This document shows positions 42,080 to 62,876 of a stretch of 64,000 nt of DNA, piece after piece. The notes under the pieces are model-generated. The model was not told where the DNA came from. It saw nothing but the letters and a program-made list of their open reading frames with translations, and made no database searches. Positions within the stretch are counted from its first letter, which is position 1; the number at the start of each line of letters is the position of its first letter. The stretch lies in the NCBI RefSeq assembly GCF_055900595.2, contig NZ_CM148325.1. One strand, 5' to 3'. Position numbers and translations under genes: made by a program.

Positions 42080-42853
42080 TCAGGCGTCGACTTTATCCAG
42101 CGGCCATGAATCAAACAGATAGCCATCAAAATAAATATCGTCAACGTTCGAGAATTCAAGCAGACGTTGCTTCACGTTTTCCAGATGCTGCCACATTGCC
42201 AGCTTCGCCGCTCGGGCGTCTTTTTTGATTAACGCGGCGAGGATCTGTTTGTGATCGCCCAACCACTCTTTGCGATACAGGCTGTCATCCAGATGGCTGT
42301 GCAATTGGATCCACATTGGATTGTTTTCCCGCCACTGCCAGGACTGACGGAATAACTCCACCAGCATGCTGTTATGCGTTGCTTCGGCAATGGCGAGATG
42401 GAACTGCATATCACCGCTTTCGCTGCTACCCGGCGCGCTGGAAGCCAGTTCACGCTCTTCCAGTTGCAATGCCTGACGCATTTTGACGATATCTTCGCGG
42501 GTAGCCTGCAGGGCGGCAAATTCCGCGATGTTACTTTCCAGTAACTGACGCGCCTGTAACAGCTCAAAAGGACCCGCATCATTGCAAACGTTGGCATCCG
42601 GACCGTCTGTGTTCTGGCTGTCTGAGCTATCAAGAACATAAATACCGGCACCCCGGCGCACTTCCACCAGCCCTTTGATCTCCAGCATGATCAGCGCTTC
42701 ACGTACCACCGTCCGCGTGACATCAAGCATTTCTGCAATTTCACGCTCCGGCGGCAGCCGTTCGCCAGGATTGTACGGCGTCTTTATGATCAGATCGCGG
42801 ATCATCGCCCCGACTTCCTGGTAAGGTCTTTGCGCAGAGGTGGCAGATTTCAT
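42080..42853 (-). CDS. uxuR: GntR/FadR-family repressor UxuR
   Basis: 257 aa; N-terminal GntR HTH and FadR-type C-terminal domain; sits next to uxuB/uxuA. Confidence 0.9.
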   Translation of the reverse strand: MKSATSAQRPYQEVGAMIRDLIIKTPYNPGERLPPEREIAEMLDVTRTVVREALIMLEIKGLVEVRRGAGIYVLDSSDSQNTDGPDANVCNDAGPFELLQARQLLESNIAEFAALQATREDIVKMRQALQLEERELASSAPGSSESGDMQFHLAIAEATHNSMLVELFRQSWQWRENNPMWIQLHSHLDDSLYRKEWLGDHKQILAALIKKDARAAKLAMWQHLENVKQRLLEFSNVDDIYFDGYLFDSWPLDKVDA

Positions 42854-42884
42854 GGTGTTGTGTCCGTTAGGTGCAGTTAATCAA

Positions 42885-42930
42885 ATTTTTGCCGGATGCG
42901 GCGTGAACGCCTTATCCGGCCTACAACGGG
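42885..42930. repeat. REP element
   Basis: GCCGGATGCGGCGTGAACGCCTTATCCGGCCTAC read directly in the uxuB-uxuR intergenic region. Coordinates approximate. Confidence 0.5.
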
Positions 42931-43066
42931 CGATTTTACGGCACCCGTCAATCTCAAACTATACCATTAGCACTGGAAGTTGGCACGTACAGGTGGGCAA
43001 AAAACGAAAACTGGTCAACCAAATATGCGTTTGATTGACCAGTAAGTCTGTAGGGTAATCAGTTAG

Positions 43067-44527
43067 TTACAGCGCAGCCACACACTCGCGCGCACCGCGT
43101 TCACACAGCTGCTGATATGCCGCCGTCACCGCGCCAACAAAGTCGGCATTCTGCGGCAGATCATCGGCAAAAATACCGCTCAGGCCCAGCAGCGCTTTCA
43201 CGCGGTCTGCGCCCTGATACTGCGCGTTGATCTTCTGGAACTCCGCCAGCATCGGGTCGACCACGTCAATGGCATTCCCCTGCTCATCCACCCCCTGGGT
43301 GTAACGCATCCAGCCAGCCACGCCGAGCGCCAGGTGACGCCAGCTACCGCCGTTTTGCAAGTGCAGACGCACCGGGTCCAACAGACGCTGCGGTAACTTC
43401 TGGCTGCCGTCCATCGCAATCTGCCAGGTACGGTGACGCAGAGACGGGTTGCTGAAACGCTCGATCAGCAGCGTCGCATAGGCGTTCAGGTCCGTACCTT
43501 CCGGCATCGACAGCGTTGGCGCTTGTTCCTGCATCATCAGGGCAAAGGCCGCTTTGCGATAATCCGGGTTAGTCATGGTGTCGGCAATAGTTTCATAGCC
43601 GCCGAGGTAACCGAGGTACGCCAGGAAAGAGTGGCTGCCGTTCAGCATACGCAATTTCATCATTTCGAACGGCACAACGTCTGCAACGAACTGTGCGCCC
43701 ACTTTATCCCAGTCCGGGCGACCATTAACGAAGTTATCTTCAATGACCCACTGACGGAATGGTTCGCAGGCAATGGCGCACGGGTCGTAAACGCCCAGCT
43801 GGTCAGCAATTTCCTGCAACGTTTCTGGGGTAGCTGCCGGAACGATGCGGTCAACCATGGTGCACGGGAAGGTGACGTTCTCTTCAATCCATGCCGCCAG
43901 TTGCGGATCGCGCGCCTGAGCCAGCCCCAGAACAGCAACTTTTGCCACGTGACCGTTTTCACGCACGTTGTCGCAGGACATGACAGTAAACGCTTTCAGC
44001 CCTTTTTCACGACGCAGACGCAACGCTTCTACGATGTAACCAATCGCCGACTTCGGCGCAGTCGGGTTTTCCAGATCGTGCTTAATCAGCGGATTATTGA
44101 GATCCAGCTGACCGCTCGCCGCATCGGCGCAGTAACCTTTTTCCGTGACCGTCAGGGAGACAATCGCCGTCTGCGGACGCGCCATCGCGTTGAGAATACC
44201 TTCACAACCGTCGATTTCCGGGTGCAGCGCTTCTTTCATCGAGCCAATAATTTTCAGCTCGGTGCTTTCTGCGCCTTTTTCCGCCACGGTATACAGCAGT
44301 TGCTGTTTTTTCAGGTTTTCGATCAGCACGCGGTCGTTGCCTGGCATCAGGTTAACTTCGCAGATACCCCAGTCGCTGTCGGTGCTTTCCAGCAGATGAT
44401 GGGTGTACAGCGCCTGGTGCGCGCGGTGAAACGCCCCGCAACCGAGATGCACAATGCGTGATTCCAGACGAGAATGATCCCATGACGGGCGGGCAACCGG
44501 CAGATTGCTGTCAACAATAGTAGTCAT
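43067..44527 (-). CDS. uxuB: D-mannonate oxidoreductase UxuB
   Basis: 486 aa; long-chain mannitol-dehydrogenase-family protein; operon position downstream of uxuA. Confidence 0.9.
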   Translation of the reverse strand: MTTIVDSNLPVARPSWDHSRLESRIVHLGCGAFHRAHQALYTHHLLESTDSDWGICEVNLMPGNDRVLIENLKKQQLLYTVAEKGAESTELKIIGSMKEALHPEIDGCEGILNAMARPQTAIVSLTVTEKGYCADAASGQLDLNNPLIKHDLENPTAPKSAIGYIVEALRLRREKGLKAFTVMSCDNVRENGHVAKVAVLGLAQARDPQLAAWIEENVTFPCTMVDRIVPAATPETLQEIADQLGVYDPCAIACEPFRQWVIEDNFVNGRPDWDKVGAQFVADVVPFEMMKLRMLNGSHSFLAYLGYLGGYETIADTMTNPDYRKAAFALMMQEQAPTLSMPEGTDLNAYATLLIERFSNPSLRHRTWQIAMDGSQKLPQRLLDPVRLHLQNGGSWRHLALGVAGWMRYTQGVDEQGNAIDVVDPMLAEFQKINAQYQGADRVKALLGLSGIFADDLPQNADFVGAVTAAYQQLCERGARECVAAL

Positions 44528-44607
44528 CGTAAACTCCAGAATTCGTCTTCAGAGAGTGACGGCAAGGAAGAAGGAACCGGCACGGCGCGCAGCCATGCCG
44601 GTGGATA

Positions 44608-45792
44608 TTAACGGCTAAAGAAAGCGCGCTGGATCGCCATTTCGACACCGCGAACTTCGGCCAGGCCTTTCAGACGACCAATCGCGGAGTAACCTGGGTT
44701 GGTTTTCTTCTTCAGGTCGTCCAGCATCTGATGACCGTGGTCCGGACGCATCGGGATCAGGTCTTCTTTGCCTTCCGCTTTACGACGGTGTTCTTCTTCA
44801 ACAATCGCTTTCACCACTTCGTACATATCAACGTCACCGTTCAGGTGCGCCGCTTCGTGGAAGGTTTTCGGGTTATCTTCACGCATGGTGGAACGCAGAT
44901 GGGTGAAGTAAATACGCGGACCGAACTGCTTGATCATATCAACCAGATCGTTGTCAGCACGCACGCCGTAGGAACCGGTGCACATGGTGAAACCGTTCGC
45001 CATGCTGTTTACGGTATCAACCATCCACTGCATATCTTCAATGGTGGAAACGATACGCGGCAGGCCGAGGATTGGGCGCGGCGGATCGTCCGGGTGAACA
45101 GCCATACGCACGCCAACTTCTTCCGCAACTGGAATGATCGCCTTCAGGAAGACCGCAAAGTTTTCGCGCAGTTTGGCTTTGTCGATATCTTTGTACAGCT
45201 CCAGGTGCTTACGGAACTGGTCAAGGGTGTAGCCTTCTTCCGCGCCCGGCAGACCGGCAATGATGTTACGGGTCAGACGCGCTTTGTCTTCGTCGCTCAT
45301 AGTGGCGAAGCGTTCAGCGGCCTGAGCAATTTCTTCTTCGGTGTAATCCGCTTCCGCGCCTGGACGCTTGAGGATGTGCATTTCAAACGCAGCAAATTCG
45401 ATCTGGTCGAAGCGCAGAGCTTTGGAGCCATCTGGCAGCACGTATTCGAGGTCAGTACGGGTCCAGTCGAGCACCGGCATGAAGTTGTAGCACACGGTGC
45501 GAATGCCGCACTGCGCCAGGTTGCGCAGAGTCTGCTGATAGTTAGCGATCCACTGCTCATAGTTGCCAGTATGAGTTTTGATATCTTCGTGAATTGGCAC
45601 ACTTTCCACAACAGACCACACCAGGCCTGCGTCTTCAACGATCGCCTTGCGTTTGAGGATCTCTTCTACTGACCACACTTCCCCGTTCGGGATATGGTGC
45701 AAAGCGGTAACCACGCCAGTCGCGCCCGCCTGACGGACATCAGCTAAAGTGACCGGATCATTAGGGCCGTACCAGCGCCAGGTCTGTTCCAT
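44608..45792 (-). CDS. uxuA: mannonate dehydratase UxuA
   Basis: ORF track 44608..45828; start at in-frame [14 protein letters not shown] (aa 13) giving 394 aa. Confidence 0.9.
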
Positions 45793-45951
45793 GATTTTTC
45801 CTCTTTCACATAGTGGGTTCCACAGCAAAAAAACGCGGAATCCCGGAGTTGTTTAGGTATCCGGATGAACAACCAGACCGCAGCCGTGGCATTGCATCGG
45901 ATGAGATGGCGTATAAGTTCTACCTTTTGGTAAGACATGTCAACCCGAATT

Positions 45952-45970
45952 CAAAAATTGGTTAACCACA
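45952..45970. promoter_or_regulatory. candidate UxuR/ExuR (FadR-type) operator, AAATTGGTTAACCA
   Basis: Near-palindromic TGGTTAACCA core read in the uxuA-gntP divergent intergenic region; fits the TnGT...ACnA pattern bound by FadR-subfamily GntR regulators. Coordinates approximate. Confidence 0.3.
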
Positions 45971-46131
45971 TCACAAGATTTTCACGCGCACGCTCGTTGC
46001 TGCAAATTGCAGCAACGGGTAATTGATAGTTATTAATCAGAGGGTGTGACATTCATCGCAACAATGGTTGACCAATTTACATAACATGTCGCCCAAAATA
46101 ACAACGGTTCAACCAGGTAAGGTAAAACGTT

Positions 46132-47475
46132 ATGCATGTGCTTAACATTCTTTGGGTAGTATTCGGTATCGGTCTGATGCTGGTACTGAATTTGAAGTTC
46201 AAAATCAATTCAATGGTGGCTTTGCTAGTGGCGGCGCTATCCGTCGGGATGTTGGCGGGCATGGATTTGATGTCGCTGCTGCACACCATGAAAGCGGGCT
46301 TCGGCAACACGCTGGGGGAACTGGCAATCATTGTTGTGTTCGGTGCGGTCATTGGTAAATTGATGGTCGACTCCGGCGCGGCTCATCAGATAGCGCATAC
46401 GCTGCTGGCGCGTCTCGGCCTGCGCTATGTCCAGATATCGGTGATTATCATCGGCCTGATTTTTGGTCTGGCGATGTTCTATGAAGTGGCCTTTATCATG
46501 TTAGCGCCGCTGGTTATCGTCATTGCCGCCGAAGCTAAAATTCCGTTCCTGAAACTGGCTATTCCGGCAGTAGCGGCTGCTACCACCGCACATTCACTTT
46601 TCCCTCCGCAGCCGGGTCCGGTGGCGCTGGTGAATGCTTATGGTGCAGATATGGGGATGGTTTATATCTATGGTGTACTGGTGACAATCCCAAGCGTAAT
46701 CTGCGCAGGCCTGATTCTGCCGAAGTTCCTCGGTAATCTTGAGCGCCCAACGCCATCATTCCTCAAAGCGGATCAACCTTTGGATATGAATAATCTCCCC
46801 TCTTTCGGCGTTTCGATTCTGGTACCGCTGATCCCGGCGATCATTATGATCTCTACCACTATCGCCAATATCTGGCTGGTCAAAGACACCCCTGCGTGGG
46901 AAGTCGTTAACTTTATAGGTTCATCGCCGATTGCAATGTTTATTGCGATGGTGGTTGCATTCGTACTCTTTGGCACCGCGCGTGGTCATGACATGCAGTG
47001 GGTGATGAACGCCTTTGAAAGCGCGGTAAAAAGCATTGCGATGGTGATTCTGATCATTGGTGCGGGCGGCGTGCTGAAGCAGACCATCATCGACACCGGC
47101 ATTGGTGACACCATCGGCATGTTGATGTCCCACGGCAATATCTCGCCGTACATCATGGCGTGGCTGATCACTGTGCTAATTCGTCTGGCGACGGGTCAAG
47201 GTGTGGTTTCAGCGATGACCGCCGCCGGGATTATCAGTGCTGCAATCCTTGATCCAGCAACCGGTCAACTGGTTGGCGTGAATCCGGCGCTGCTGGTACT
47301 GGCGACGGCTGCGGGTTCCAACACCCTCACCCACATTAACGATGCCTCATTCTGGTTGTTCAAAGGTTACTTTGACCTGTCAGTAAAAGACACGTTGAAA
47401 ACATGGGGTCTGCTGGAGCTGGTCAACTCCGTGGTTGGGCTGATTATTGTGTTGATTATTAGCATGGTAGCGTAA
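46132..47475 (+). CDS. gntP: gluconate/fructuronate GntP-family permease
   Basis: 447 aa polytopic transporter; size and position match E. coli GntP. Confidence 0.9.
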
Positions 47476-47519
47476 AAGAACACCAGAGCCTGCCAATGGC
47501 AGGCTCTATTCAGATTCGC

Positions 47520-47610
47520 CTTGTTTATGCCAGATGCGACGCTGCCGCGTCTTATCTGGCCTACAAAGGGCTAACGTGCGGGTTTGTAGGTAGCGTAGCG
47601 CATCAGGCAA
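47520..47610. repeat. REP elements between convergent gntP and fimH
   Basis: CGTCTTATCTGGCCTACAAAGGG and GTAGGTAGCGTAGCGCATCAGGCA-type REP units. Coordinates approximate. Confidence 0.5.
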
Positions 47611-56399: not shown

Positions 56400-57412
56400 C
56401 GTTTTCCCTTATAATTACAGACGCGCACTAGCTGTGCTGGGTTAGCAATAATCCAACATTTTAATCCTGATTATGTTTATAAAAGCGAACGTTTGCTTAA
56501 TAACTAACGTAAGTGGACCAGTTCTTCTGAGTGAACTTAAATGGAGTAGCGATAGTTACTTATAATAACTTTGCCATACAAACGCCATGCTCTTGCATGC
56601 TATGTACCTTTATATATTTATCAATGTGATACGAATCTAATAATAACCCTCATCATTAATGCAACTAATCTTATCTATATATCATGTGATATGTTCTGTA
56701 ACAAGTAAAATCAACATAAAAAATTCAGCAAAATTTAATATTCGTTCAACTAGCCGTCTCACATATGACATTATTAGTCAACTGCATTTGCCACAAAATG
56801 GCTATTTCATGGAACGCAGTAATTTCTTAGCGTCTATTATCATGCTAATTCTTAGGTCCCTAGCGATTATTCCTGTCTGGTTCGTCAACTCACGCCATGA
56901 GATTGTTATATTCCTTTTTATCATGGAGATATGGGGGAAAGCAGGCGACGCTTTTTCATCTACATTCATTGGTAAATATGGCTTTGGTCACTACGTCTTA
57001 AACCTTCTTCAATCACAGCTATTCGCCGGGCGCTACGGCAAACAAACTAAGTGAAGCATCATCCTGAAAACACCATCATCAACAAGCCTCTCCAGATCGA
57101 CTTCAGAAGTGACCAGTTACAAGCCACAAACCTGGAAACATATTTCATGATGAGAATTATGCTCAGCCTGATGGCGGGTAAACACTTATTTTCACCAAGC
57201 TCACTGAGTTAGCTTGCAAAGCTTTCCTTGTTTAGATTCTAAATAAATTATCTATAAAACAGATAGTTAAAAGAAAATCTTTAGTTTTTGAAGACCACCG
57301 CAAGTGTTCGTCTGGCTTCACATGGCATCTTCCTCTTAGAAAAAGATCGACATATTTTGTGACACGAATTGCAAATCTGGTTTTGTTGTATGGATTGCGT
57401 GATTTTTGATCT

Positions 57413-57435
57413 GGTATAACAGGTATAAAGGTGCA
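57413..57435. promoter_or_regulatory. NanR-type operator (tandem GGTATA hexamers: GGTATAACAGGTATAAAGGTGCA)
   Basis: Two exact GGTATA hexamers plus a degenerate third, read directly in the large fimB-nanC intergenic region upstream of nanC. Coordinates approximate. Confidence 0.5.
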
Positions 57436-57851
57436 CCACGATAGTCAATGAGACTGGGCATCTCGAAATCTATGGCAAACATCACTTCAGTTCTTTCACA
57501 TCGGGTGATGAAAATGCACTTCAGTCTGAAAGGAATATGAAAATGAGATCAACAGACACTCTATTTTATGACTCTGGGTAAAATGGATTGAGTAAGTGAT
57601 ATCGCTTACGAACATTCAAATCAATCAAACATCAGAAGAGATTTTATACTCAGGTATTTAATCTGGATCTCTGTTTATTTAAATAATGTGGAAAGAGATT
57701 TTTCACAGGAGACATTATACAAAAAATATAAAATACAGCTATCGGTTGCCAAAGACACTATAAGCCTGGCAAAAAATATTACACAACATAAATGCTAATT
57801 GTTTATGCGGGCTTTGTATTGCTTTCTGTATCCTACAAATGAGTGAAATTT

Positions 57852-58568
57852 ATGAAAAAGGCTAAAATACTTTCTGGCGTATTATTACTGTGCTTTTCGT
57901 CACCATTAATTTCTCAAGCTGCGACACTGGACGTACGTGGTGGATATCGTAGTGGAAGCCACGCCTATGAGACTCGACTCAAAGTCAGTGAGGGATGGCA
58001 AAATGGATGGTGGGCAAGCATGGAAAGTAATACCTGGAATACCATTCATGATAATAAAAAGGAAAATGCCGCACTCAATGATGTTCAGGTTGAAGTTAAT
58101 TACGCGATTAAACTTGATGATCAATGGACGGTGCGCCCGGGAATGTTAACGCATTTTAGCAGCAACGGCACACGCTACGGACCCTACGTAAAACTGTCCT
58201 GGGACGCGACAAAAGATCTTAATTTTGGCATTCGCTATCGTTACGACTGGAAAGCTTACCGACAACAAGACTTATCCGGTGAGATGTCTCGTGATAACGT
58301 TCATCGTTGGGATGGATATGTCACTTACCATATTAATAGTGATTTCACCTTCGCATGGCAAACGACGCTATACAGCAAACAAAACGATTATCGCTATGCA
58401 AACCATAAGAAATGGGCGACGGAAAATGCATTTGTTCTACAATACCATATGACGCCTGATATTACGCCATACATAGAATATGACTACCTTGACCGTCAGG
58501 GTGTTTATAACGGCAGAGATAATTTATCAGAAAACAGTTATCGCATTGGTGTGTCATTTAAACTGTAG
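57852..58568 (+). CDS. nanC: N-acetylneuraminic acid outer membrane channel NanC (KdgM family)
   Basis: ORF track 57843..58568 (GTG); start set at in-frame ATG MKKAKILSGVLLL (aa 4) giving 238 aa. Confidence 0.9.
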   Translation: MKKAKILSGVLLLCFSSPLISQAATLDVRGGYRSGSHAYETRLKVSEGWQNGWWASMESNTWNTIHDNKKENAALNDVQVEVNYAIKLDDQWTVRPGMLTHFSSNGTRYGPYVKLSWDATKDLNFGIRYRYDWKAYRQQDLSGEMSRDNVHRWDGYVTYHINSDFTFAWQTTLYSKQNDYRYANHKKWATENAFVLQYHMTPDITPYIEYDYLDRQGVYNGRDNLSENSYRIGVSFKL

Positions 58569-58587
58569 TAGACAGGAGACAGTCACA

Positions 58588-59694
58588 ATGAATAAAACAA
58601 TAACGGCGCTTGCTATCATGATGGCTTCATTTGCCGCAAACGCGTCTGTATTACCGGAAACTCCGGTGCCATTTAAAAGTGGTACCGGAGCAATTGATAA
58701 CGACACTGTCTACATTGGTTTAGGTAGCGCAGGTACGGCATGGTACAAGCTGGATACACAGGCCAAAGATAAAAAATGGACAGCGTTAGCTGCATTCCCT
58801 GGTGGGGCGAGAGATCAAGCAACCTCTGCATTTATTGATGGCAATCTGTACGTATTTGGCGGCATTGGCAAAAACAGCGAAGGCTTGACTCAGGTATTTA
58901 ATGACGTACACAAATACAACCCCAAAACCAATAGCTGGGTTAAATTGATGTCGCACGCGCCGATGGGCATGGCGGGCCATGTGACTTTTGTACACAACGG
59001 CAAGGCTTATGTTACTGGCGGTGTTAACCAAAATATCTTTAATGGCTATTTTGAAGATCTCAACGAAGCTGGAAAAGATTCAACCGCTATAGAGAAAATC
59101 AACGCCCACTATTTTGACAAAAAAGCAGAAGATTATTTCTTCAATAAGTTTCTGTTGTCTTTTGATCCCTCTACACAGCAATGGAGTTACGCTGGCGAAT
59201 CTCCCTGGTACGGGACGGCTGGTGCAGCGGTTGTGAATAAAGGCGATAAAACCTGGCTTATTAATGGTGAAGCCAAACCAGGACTACGAACGGATGCCGT
59301 ATTTGAACTTGATTTCACCGGTAATAATTTAAAATGGAATAAACTTGCTCCCGTCTCATCACCAGATGGCGTTGCTGGCGGTTTTGCGGGGATAAGCAAT
59401 GACTCACTTATATTTGCCGGAGGGGCCGGATTCAAAGGTTCACGAGAAAATTACCAGAACGGTAAGAACTATGCGCATGAAGGCCTGAAAAAATCATATA
59501 GCACTGATATTCATCTTTGGCATAACGGGAAATGGGATAAATCGGGCGAATTGTCGCAAGGTCGGGCCTACGGAGTATCATTGCCCTGGAATAATAGTCT
59601 ATTGATTATTGGCGGTGAAACTGCAGGCGGCAAAGCGGTAACGGATTCAGTATTGATCTCTGTGAAGGATAATAAAGTCACAGTGCAAAACTAA
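58588..59694 (+). CDS. nanM: N-acetylneuraminate epimerase NanM (Kelch-repeat beta-propeller)
   Basis: ORF track 58480..59694; start at in-frame MNKTITALAIMMASFAANA (aa 37) giving 368 aa. Confidence 0.9.
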   Translation: MNKTITALAIMMASFAANASVLPETPVPFKSGTGAIDNDTVYIGLGSAGTAWYKLDTQAKDKKWTALAAFPGGARDQATSAFIDGNLYVFGGIGKNSEGLTQVFNDVHKYNPKTNSWVKLMSHAPMGMAGHVTFVHNGKAYVTGGVNQNIFNGYFEDLNEAGKDSTAIEKINAHYFDKKAEDYFFNKFLLSFDPSTQQWSYAGESPWYGTAGAAVVNKGDKTWLINGEAKPGLRTDAVFELDFTGNNLKWNKLAPVSSPDGVAGGFAGISNDSLIFAGGAGFKGSRENYQNGKNYAHEGLKKSYSTDIHLWHNGKWDKSGELSQGRAYGVSLPWNNSLLIIGGETAGGKAVTDSVLISVKDNKVTVQN

Positions 59695-59758
59695 CGCTTC
59701 AGGGCCCCAGTAAAGGGGCTCTGCTATCAATTTGCCATTTCAATTACGCGAAAATTAT

Positions 59759-60559
59759 ATGAACGCAATAATATCGCCCGATTATTACTATGTTCTTACC
59801 GTTGCCGGTCAGTCTAATGCCATGGCGTATGGCGAAGGACTGCCATTACCGGACAGGGAAGATGCGCCTCATCCCAAAATTAAACAATTAGCGAGATTCG
59901 CGCATACGCATCCCGGAGGCCCCTCATGTCACTTTAACGACATTATTCCACTAACTCACTGCCCACACGATGTTCAGGATATGCAGGGTTATCACCATCC
60001 TCTGGCAACGAATCATCAAACACAGTACGGCACCGTTGGCCAGGCACTGCATATTGCACGGAAATTACTGCCCTTTATTCCTGATAATGCAGGGGTTCTC
60101 ATCGTTCCGTGTTGCCGTGGCGGATCGGCTTTTACCGCGGGCAGCGAAGGGACATATTCAGAACGGCACGGAGCCAGCCATGATGCTTGTCGTTGGGGAA
60201 CGGATACTCCGCTATACCAGGATTTAGTCAGCAGAACGCGAGCCGCACTGGCAAAAAATCCGCAGAACAAATTCCTCGGCGTATGCTGGATGCAAGGCGA
60301 ATTTGACTTAATGGCCAGTGACTACGCGTTACACCCTCAACACTTTAATCATATGGTTAAAGCCTTTCGTAGGGATCTAAAACAATACCATTCTCAGCTT
60401 AATAAAATTACTGACGCGCCGTGGTTTTGCGGCGATACCACCTGGTACTGGAAAGAAAATTTCCCTCATGCGTATGAAGCTATTTATGGCAATTATCAAA
60501 ATAATGTTTTAGCCAATATTATTTTCGTCGACTTCCAGCAACAAGGTGAAGAGGACTGA
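59759..60559 (+). CDS. nanS: 9-O-acetyl-N-acetylneuraminate esterase NanS, apparently C-terminally truncated by a frameshift (266 aa)
   Basis: Start at in-frame MNAIISPDYYYVLTVAGQSNA (aa 10 of ORF 59732..60559). The frame ends at ...FVDFQQQGEED, while a second frame continues without a start codon (TNAPDEDPDDLSTGY ... ILQFWRER, stop near 60728). Confidence 0.7.
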   Translation: MNAIISPDYYYVLTVAGQSNAMAYGEGLPLPDREDAPHPKIKQLARFAHTHPGGPSCHFNDIIPLTHCPHDVQDMQGYHHPLATNHQTQYGTVGQALHIARKLLPFIPDNAGVLIVPCCRGGSAFTAGSEGTYSERHGASHDACRWGTDTPLYQDLVSRTRAALAKNPQNKFLGVCWMQGEFDLMASDYALHPQHFNHMVKAFRRDLKQYHSQLNKITDAPWFCGDTTWYWKENFPHAYEAIYGNYQNNVLANIIFVDFQQQGEED

Positions 60560-60799
60560 CGAACGCGCCTGATGAAGATCCAGACGATTTAAGCACGGGA
60601 TATTTCGGCTCAGCGTACCGGTCAGCGGAGAACTGGACGACGTCACTGCGAAGCAGTCATTTCAGCGCGGCAGCCCGTCGGGGGATTATTTCTGACAGGT
60701 TTGTAGAAGCAATTTTGCAGTTTTGGCGCGAAAGGTGAGCGTTCATTAATTTGATTTATTCGCATCCATCAACGCTTTTAACTGCTCCGGCGTGCGGCA

Positions 60800-61560
60800 C
60801 TATAATGGTTTTCACAACAAGGAGCCATTTTCTTATACCACTTTCAGAGACCATCCGCTTATGCCACCGCCCTCTACGCAACTGTTTGCAGAGCACCTTC
60901 CCACCGAGTGGATACAGCACCTCCTGACGCTTTCTGCTCATGCGACCATTTGTCGTCTTAACCTGAGCGCGGATGGCGAAGCGGGGATTAGCCTGCTGGC
61001 CCGCAGCGCTGTCACCCAGGAGCGCCAGCGCGTGGGGGCCCCCTGGTGGAATGGCTCTTCCGCCAGACCGCACAGACATGGGGCGCGGAACGTTACCTGA
61101 AGGATGACTGGCACGGCCTGCAACTTTTTGCCATTGATGGCGCACAGTTCAGGACACCTATGAACCTGAGTTGCGTGAATATTATGGCTCTGCCAACACA
61201 TCCACTGAGCGGCAGAGCGCCTACCCGGTCATGCGTCTGGTGGCGTTAATGAATCTGGGAATCACATTCGGCTGAATGCCATGACCGCGGCCTACCGGCG
61301 GAGCGATACAGCGTGAGGCAACTAAAGCGGCGTCAGAAATCAGCTTTAAGTTCGCATTCCTGTTTATCGTGACAGAAATGATAGTGCAGGGAAATACGGC
61401 GTCACCAGGAACCATCCCGAAACGGCTGGAGCATCTGCGGGGTGCTCTGGAAGCGGTGTTCCCACGACTATCAAGGCCGAGGGCTGTTAAGGTATCAAAA
61501 ACCCGTTATCCGGTGAAACACAGTGCTGCCCCGCTTAAGTGACGGCATTGTGTTTCTGAC
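60800..61560 (+). mobile_element. degenerate IS4-family transposase remnant (frameshifted, truncated)
   Basis: Fragmentary frames on the + strand contain IS4-transposase-like segments (VEWLFRQTAQTWGAE ... WHGLQLFAIDGAQFRTP; QSAYPVMRLVALMNLGITF) resembling the N-terminal region of IS4 transposase as I recall it. No intact ORF and no terminal inverted repeats identified. Coordinates approximate. Confidence 0.55.
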
Positions 61561-61712
61561 TGGCCTTAACTTTCCCTGAATCTCTGACGATCCTCACCAT
61601 TGATATTTTCTTCATTCCTCACCAGAGAAATAAAAAATCACTATACTCATCAAAATATGATGATTACCTTTATTCAGGTGATCACCTTACTATTTTATAC
61701 GGAAAATAAATC

Positions 61713-62363
61713 ATGAATATCCGTCAATCATTACATGACCGAATCTATGCAGAATACCCTCAACAGGCTAAAGATATATTACTGTATTTCCCCACTTATG
61801 AAATTATGCCATCGACCATAAAAATGGTTATGATTAATGAGGTGGTAGCTATAACACCGCAAGAAGATTTTTATACACCAGAGTCTGGTTATTTTACGAC
61901 TGTCGCCCGACAGTTAGCGCTGGCTGGATTATCGGCAAGTAGTGGCGAAGTCTTACTCAACCATGGTATCTACCTGACCTCCGCACTGAAACTACCTAAA
62001 ACACAGATCACAGCCACACCCGCGGAGATCATTCTCTGGTCACCTATTGTAGAATGGGAGCTCGAACTCTTTGCCAATATAAAAGTTATTTTCGTTGGCG
62101 GCGATATCGCGCGAAAATGCCTTAACATCATCGCGAAAAAGCAAACACGTAAACATGCCATCCCTTCAACTCCGACGTACAAACTGATGAATAGCGAATT
62201 AGTCTGGAAAGGAATAAGCATACTTCCTGGATATATTCTTACCGGAAAAAACCTGCTCATTGAAAAGTCAAAAATCGAAATGAATGTCGAACAATTAAGA
62301 AAAGGAATTGCGATTTATCGCAATAGTAACAGTAACCATACGAATAATTCAGTTCATGAATAA
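61713..62363 (+). CDS. hypothetical protein (216 aa), AT-rich orphan
   Basis: Complete ORF in an AT-rich segment between the IS remnant and the helicase gene; no recognisable motif. Confidence 0.45.
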   Translation: MNIRQSLHDRIYAEYPQQAKDILLYFPTYEIMPSTIKMVMINEVVAITPQEDFYTPESGYFTTVARQLALAGLSASSGEVLLNHGIYLTSALKLPKTQITATPAEIILWSPIVEWELELFANIKVIFVGGDIARKCLNIIAKKQTRKHAIPSTPTYKLMNSELVWKGISILPGYILTGKNLLIEKSKIEMNVEQLRKGIAIYRNSNSNHTNNSVHE

Positions 62364-62876
62364 GAGATGAATCATTAATAACAAGAAATCACTGACAAAC
62401 CACCTGTAAAAGGTCAATCATTTTAGTTCAATTTCCTTTGTCATGATTATATTTTTATCGTCCTGACGATACTATTAACAATTACAATATTTATACCCTC
62501 CCCTGAACAAACAGAAAAGAACTCATACATTCGTTTATAATTCTGGTAATCCTGGCATCATACGTTTAAAATTTAAGGTGTTTGTTTTATAATCATGGTT
62601 CCAAAGACTATTGGTCACCAGAAAATGCCAGCCTTTTCGTGCCAGCTATATTTGTCCAGTGTGTTACCCCATCCAAAAATCATCCACATCCTGATGTTAC
62701 GTTAGATATAGAGAAAACAGGTTGTACTGTGCAATATGCTAACCGCATAAGCGAATATAATTTCTAAGCTGATATTGTCTGGCTGTTGGGAGCTAAACAA
62801 TATAAATATCGCCAGTTGCCAGAACGGTTATATAGACCAGGAGCGTTTCGGCTCCTGGTCTGTTTCGGACATATTA

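Follow-up and report, generated by a model that had tools for sequence, protein, structure and literature searches.

The window (the whole 64,000-nucleotide stretch analysed here, from contig NZ_CM148325.1 of RefSeq assembly GCF_055900595.2) contains nanC, nanM, and nanS next to fim, a gene order shared with annotated E. coli genomes, with nanS as the third gene of the operon. The features of the locus are the following.

57852-58568, plus strand: nanC, intact, 238 aa; annotated at the same relative position in loci L001 (EC42405), L002, and K-12; Pfam KdgM.
58588-59694, plus strand: nanM, N-acetylneuraminate mutarotase, intact, 368 aa; annotated in relatives; Pfam NANM/Kelch.
59759-60559, plus strand: 5′ part of nanS, encoding a 266-aa truncated product (NanS residues 1-264, then ED as two residues from the shifted frame, up to a premature TGA); Pfam SASA match.
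60548-60549, plus strand: site of the 1-nt deletion in nanS, from DNA alignment; in all top matches, the stretch of the genome record exceeds the query by 1 nt.
60550-60738, plus strand: 3′ part of nanS, out of frame, encoding NanS residues 265-326 including the codon for the catalytic His301, without a usable start codon.
60657-60746, minus strand: ythB-like small ORF, 29 aa, antisense to the 3′ end of nanS; Pfam PF23516 YthB; intact and unaffected by the deletion.

The ythB-like ORF is homologous to K-12 YthB (32 aa, b4802), and its overlap with the out-of-frame nanS tail takes in the region of the His301 codon; ythB overlaps nanS likewise in K-12. No Rfam RNA family was found within 57000-64000.

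A one-base deletion in codon 265 of nanS

According to the list of ORFs and its translations, the 5′ frame of nanS extends from the ATG at 59759 to the TGA at 60557-60559 and encodes 266 aa ending in ...FVDFQQQGEED (IIFVDFQQQGEED; also given as ...NIIFVDFQQQGEED), as the first-pass annotation had read it. A second frame, one base behind the first, runs from 60550, free of internal stops, as far as the stop codon at 60736-60738 (translation RGLTNAPDEDPDDLSTGYFGSAYRSAENWTTSLRSSHFSAAARRGIISDRFVEAILQFWRER) and is bounded upstream by the immediately adjacent TGA at 60547-60549. This tail frame had initially been described as some 57 codons lacking a start. That it is open and ends in a NanS-like C-terminus holds, but it comprises 59 codons counted from TNAPDEDP, and codon 54 of its 62 is a TTG, the one start-type codon that it contains. 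The possibility that the tail is translated independently was considered and rejected, this TTG being the only candidate and no usable start being present.

K-12 NanS is 326 aa long. When it was compared with the window by tblastn, frame 2 accounted for residues 1-265 (59759-60553, 96.2% identity) and frame 1 for residues 265-326 (60550-60735, 93.5% identity). Because the two halves of one protein fall in two frames at such identities, the match of the tail is not due to chance. At the DNA and translated level, the window nanS is a whole-length homologue of characterized NanS, spread over two frames, and an uninterrupted ORF of ∼326 aa is absent from it.

Alignment of the DNA with K-12 MG1655, EC42405, and Z1323HEC0462 contained a single gap column in 371, so that the window lacks exactly one base, in codon 265, between its positions 60548 and 60549. 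Where the relatives read GGTG[C/A]AAGAGG, with C in the closest relatives and A in K-12, the window reads GGTGAAGAGG (GGTG-AAGAGG). Set against the closest relatives (GCAAG), the window has thus lost a C that does not belong to a homopolymer; set against K-12, the change is one from AAA to AA, these being the longest homopolymers at the site in K-12 and in the window, respectively. The earlier suspicion that a 1-nt indel splits a gene of 326 aa in K-12 is borne out both by this alignment and by the frame switch at residue 265, the indel being a deletion. The GC-rich run that had been suspected near 60550 is not present, GC content being 49% over 60520-60580.

The window copy shares with E. coli NanS (YjhS, b4309; N-acetyl-9-O-acetylneuraminate esterase, 326 aa; Pfam SASA PF03629) the nanC-nanM-nanS locus, ∼96% identity over residues 1-265, and the GQSN serine, Ser19. 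It differs in that its frame is broken at codon 265, and the 266-aa product lacks His301.

Content and conservation of the lost C-terminal segment

NanS is a single-domain esterase of SGNH type II (PDB 3PT5, which matches K-12 NanS at E=1.8e-231). Its catalytically active residues are given in PMC9063846 as Ser19 and His301, without a classical Asp, and PMC10017367 states that the roles of Ser and His were confirmed by mutagenesis and that E. coli cannot grow on Neu5,9Ac2 without NanS. The nucleophile Ser19 is kept in the 266-aa product (TCT at 59813-59815, in the GQSN motif, AGQSNAM), and this serine of the GQSN block is nearly invariant in an alignment of 12 homologous sequences. The codon for His301 (CAT at 60658-60660) lies past the premature stop and in the other frame, so that this residue is not on the polypeptide that carries Ser19.

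Because the Pfam SASA model spans residues 78-209 only, Pfam alone is insufficient to decide whether the tail belongs to the domain, and its membership was judged by alignment of homologues instead; no NCBIfam model matches NanS, irrespective of whether it is truncated or full length. NanS homologues at 54-68% identity, among them chromosomal copies from Citrobacter, Proteus, and Salmonella (names as given by the sources) and prophage NanS-p, span 94-99% of K-12 NanS, and the tail is, therefore, not a dispensable appendage. It is conserved in homologues at 55-68% identity, the alignment continuing through His301, and the near-invariant positions of the tail in the 12-sequence alignment include N269, P271, D274, D276, Y282, G284, R288, W293, R298, His301, F302, R307, and R308 (K-12 numbering).

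From these data, the shift of frame at codon 265 would append two wrong residues (ED) and end translation at the stop at 60557-60559, giving a 266-aa product devoid of the conserved C-terminal 61 residues, that is, of the catalytic base His301 and of a C-terminal segment of the fold. As the part bearing His301 is absent, the Ser19-only product is predicted to have no sialate 9-O-acetylesterase activity. The first-pass annotation had regarded the esterase as possibly inactive or altered at its C-terminus. This view is supported and can be sharpened: because the segment lost contains the catalytic histidine, “inactive” rather than “altered” is the prediction. The remaining 3′ sequence of nanS would be an untranslated relic. 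With nanS at the end of the operon, the deletion should have no polar effect and should leave nanC and nanM unaffected.

At the level of the organism, the strain should be unable to grow on Neu5,9Ac2 via its chromosomal pathway, unless prophage nanS-p esterases encoded elsewhere in the genome compensate. The chromosomal nanCMS route is, by the same reasoning, predicted to give the lineage as a whole no access to 9-O-acetylated sialic acid from mucus, and gut colonization could be affected if no prophage nanS-p copy compensates. NanS-p of STEC prophages (DUF1737-SASA-C-terminal lectin-like domain) has a homologous SASA domain (55-58% identity, aligned through the His301 region) and likewise acts on Neu5,9Ac2 (PMC10462455), on which prophage nanS-p confers a growth advantage in STEC EDL933 and LB226692 (PMC10462455). 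Unlike the window gene, NanS-p is multi-domain and phage-encoded, and it is pertinent here only as a potential back-up elsewhere in the genome; within the 64-kb window, no second SASA gene was detected by tblastn.

A different reading would be that the Ser19-containing, His301-lacking protein of 266 aa is kept for a residual or new function, for example, as a non-catalytic binder of O-acetylated sialic acid, or that the loss of NanS was itself selected as adaptive. In favor of this reading, the lesion is fixed in all sampled members of the lineage (see below), and no stop has arisen in the 5′ ORF, which retains Ser19. Fixation within a clonal lineage, however, requires no selection, the deletion removes the catalytic histidine together with ∼19% of a fold that consists of one domain and has a conserved tail, and no other member of the family ends at around residue 266. 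Retention or selected loss is, for these reasons, considered improbable. Should one of the two nonetheless be true, the frameshift would mark a shift of niche rather than neutral decay; a selected loss could reflect reliance on phage nanS-p copies, or to a niche in which O-acetylated sialic acids are irrelevant or harmful.

Loss of function by the deletion remains the preferred reading, and it may have occurred recently, with which the stop-free relic tail and the small number of substitutions are compatible. Compared with three references, five substitutions are specific to the window nanS (R40K, T186A, S191L, and two synonymous changes). Relaxed selection is not demonstrable from three non-synonymous and two synonymous changes, which are too few.

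Distribution of the allele and integrity of the reading frame

The exact 266-aa product occurs on 77 public contigs (NCBI, ENA, Logan, and UniRef UPI0026CF9D80), which range from fragments of <2 kb to single contigs of 5.3-5.5 Mb; a contig index holds it in 108 blocks, on contigs from <2 kb to >1 Mb. It has been entered by NCBI and UniRef as sialate O-acetylesterase [Escherichia coli], without a pseudogene flag. Two near-identical loci, from GCA_052815395.1 (235-kb contig) and GCA_964249055.1 (5.35-Mb contig), both share the deletion and differ from the window by two SNPs and one SNP, respectively, over 6,801 bases. The two loci thus stem from separate, independent isolates of the same lineage as the window. 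All of the differences over the 6.8 kb are at 57420 and 57435, in the fimB-nanC intergenic region upstream of nanC.

Repaired 326-aa versions of the window allele, with A, E, G, or V at residue 265, were absent from a collection of 15 billion proteins (0 of 4 found). Among RefSeq complete E. coli genomes, 5,001 matched a 71-nt probe across the deletion site, none of them exactly; all were <99% identical over the probe, which corresponds to at least the one-base gap. The closest nanS among these complete genomes, that of EC42405, is 98.9% identical and has an intact ORF of 326 aa, and the best match of the uxu-gntP stretch is 98.6% identical. As many assemblies share the lesion, while the intact allele is absent and no complete genome matches the probe exactly, the deletion is a fixed marker of a lineage without a close representative among RefSeq complete genomes.

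Single-base indels are the commonest assembly error, and the window has AA where K-12 has AAA; the true genome might, accordingly, contain an extra base and an intact 326-aa nanS. This is very unlikely. The identical truncated protein is present on contigs of several sources and of very different length, the deletion is common to independent assemblies that differ by SNPs elsewhere, and the intact form of this particular allele was never found in the protein collection. Moreover, when compared with the closest relatives rather than K-12, the lost base is a non-homopolymer C, in a neighborhood of unremarkable GC content (49%). The recurrence of the lesion in independent assemblies, together with the absence of the intact allele, points to a fixed, lineage-wide pseudogene and not to an artefact.

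Even a genuine deletion would leave NanS functional if programmed −1 ribosomal frameshifting or transcriptional slippage restored the full-length protein, and the perfect preservation of the tail frame (93.5% identity to K-12, no stops) is what such rescue would predict. A recent deletion, however, accounts for this preservation equally well. A productive slip would be confined to 60550-60559, between the TGA at 60547-60549 and the zero-frame TGA; this interval reads AGAGGACTGA and contains neither an X XXY YYZ heptamer nor a homopolymer run. In addition, ∼5,000 other genomes have the gene in one frame. Rescue of this kind is regarded as extremely improbable. Hardly any weight can be given, finally, to the notion that some NanS orthologues naturally end at about residue 266, for which no supporting evidence was found: the listed members of the 90%-identity cluster are 326-328 aa long, shorter ones being fragments only on contigs of <1 kb, and the alignments of the homologues at 54-68% identity extend over 94-99% of the query and through His301. 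None of them ends where the window ORF does, and the frameshift truncation read by the first-pass annotation stands when set against them.

Taken as a genuine 1-nt deletion in codon 265, the window nanS is very probably a lineage-fixed loss-of-function pseudogene. It shares with other lineage-fixed frameshift pseudogenes of E. coli and Shigella the single-base indel, the premature stop, the intact-looking relic, and the presence in all sampled members of a clone. Compared with these, nothing about it is distinctive, except that this allele is in none of ∼5,000 RefSeq complete genomes. It is an ordinary frameshift in a well-characterized gene, and the deletion reveals no new kind of system. The allele has already been deposited in public databases; searching the literature on nanS pseudogenes of E. 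coli returned nothing relevant, and no paper describing the allele was found. As the deletion is absent from ∼5,000 RefSeq complete E. coli genomes, it is useful as a clean single-base marker of the lineage.

Annotation of nanS and the surrounding region

The window nanS should be annotated as a pseudogene disrupted by a frameshift, and the public 266-aa entries named sialate O-acetylesterase are probably non-functional. The opposite error is also encountered: RefSeq/PGAP labels intact 326-aa nanS as a partial pseudogene “missing C-terminus” (EC42405, L001 3033-4040, and many other RefSeq E. coli). The partial nanS CDS of PGAP roughly coincides with the stretch matching Pfam SASA (residues 78-209), and codons 252-275 are without an annotated feature in 11 of the 15 genomes listed. 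RefSeq pseudogene flags, thus, over-call the loss of nanS and are, therefore, unusable for counting nanS pseudogenes.

Among 5,426 RefSeq complete E. coli genomes, none is closely related to the source lineage: identity reaches at most 98.6% for uxuR-uxuB-uxuA-gntP and 98.9% for nanS (the regions compared included 40000-47600 and 59700-60800 of the window). The island that follows nanS differs in this respect from the nanS and uxu stretches, many genomes matching it at 99.7% identity. This difference in identity (99.7% versus 98.6-98.9%) suggests that the fim-nan region is mosaic or recombinant.

Downstream of nanS, at 60790-61550 on the plus strand, several short ORFs form the remnant of an IS4-family transposase N-terminus, which stands in place of the K-12 yjhR-topAI-yjhQP region and is annotated in related genomes as “frameshifted hypothetical protein” or “transposase.” It is followed by an ORF of 216 aa (61713-62363, plus strand) that many E. 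coli genomes share at a DNA identity of 99.7%; this ORF had no match in NCBIfam or PADLOC and is called “uracil-DNA glycosylase family protein” in some RefSeq records. The C-terminal part of a UvrD-like helicase of 704 aa lies on the minus strand from 62877 to 64000 and continues past the end of the window. The helicase matches PADLOC profiles for GajB (Gabija helicase; E=8e-27), and the region may be a helicase-based defence or mobile island. In EC42405, the upstream neighbor of this helicase is a DEAD/DEAH-box helicase of ∼2,100 aa, not GajA.
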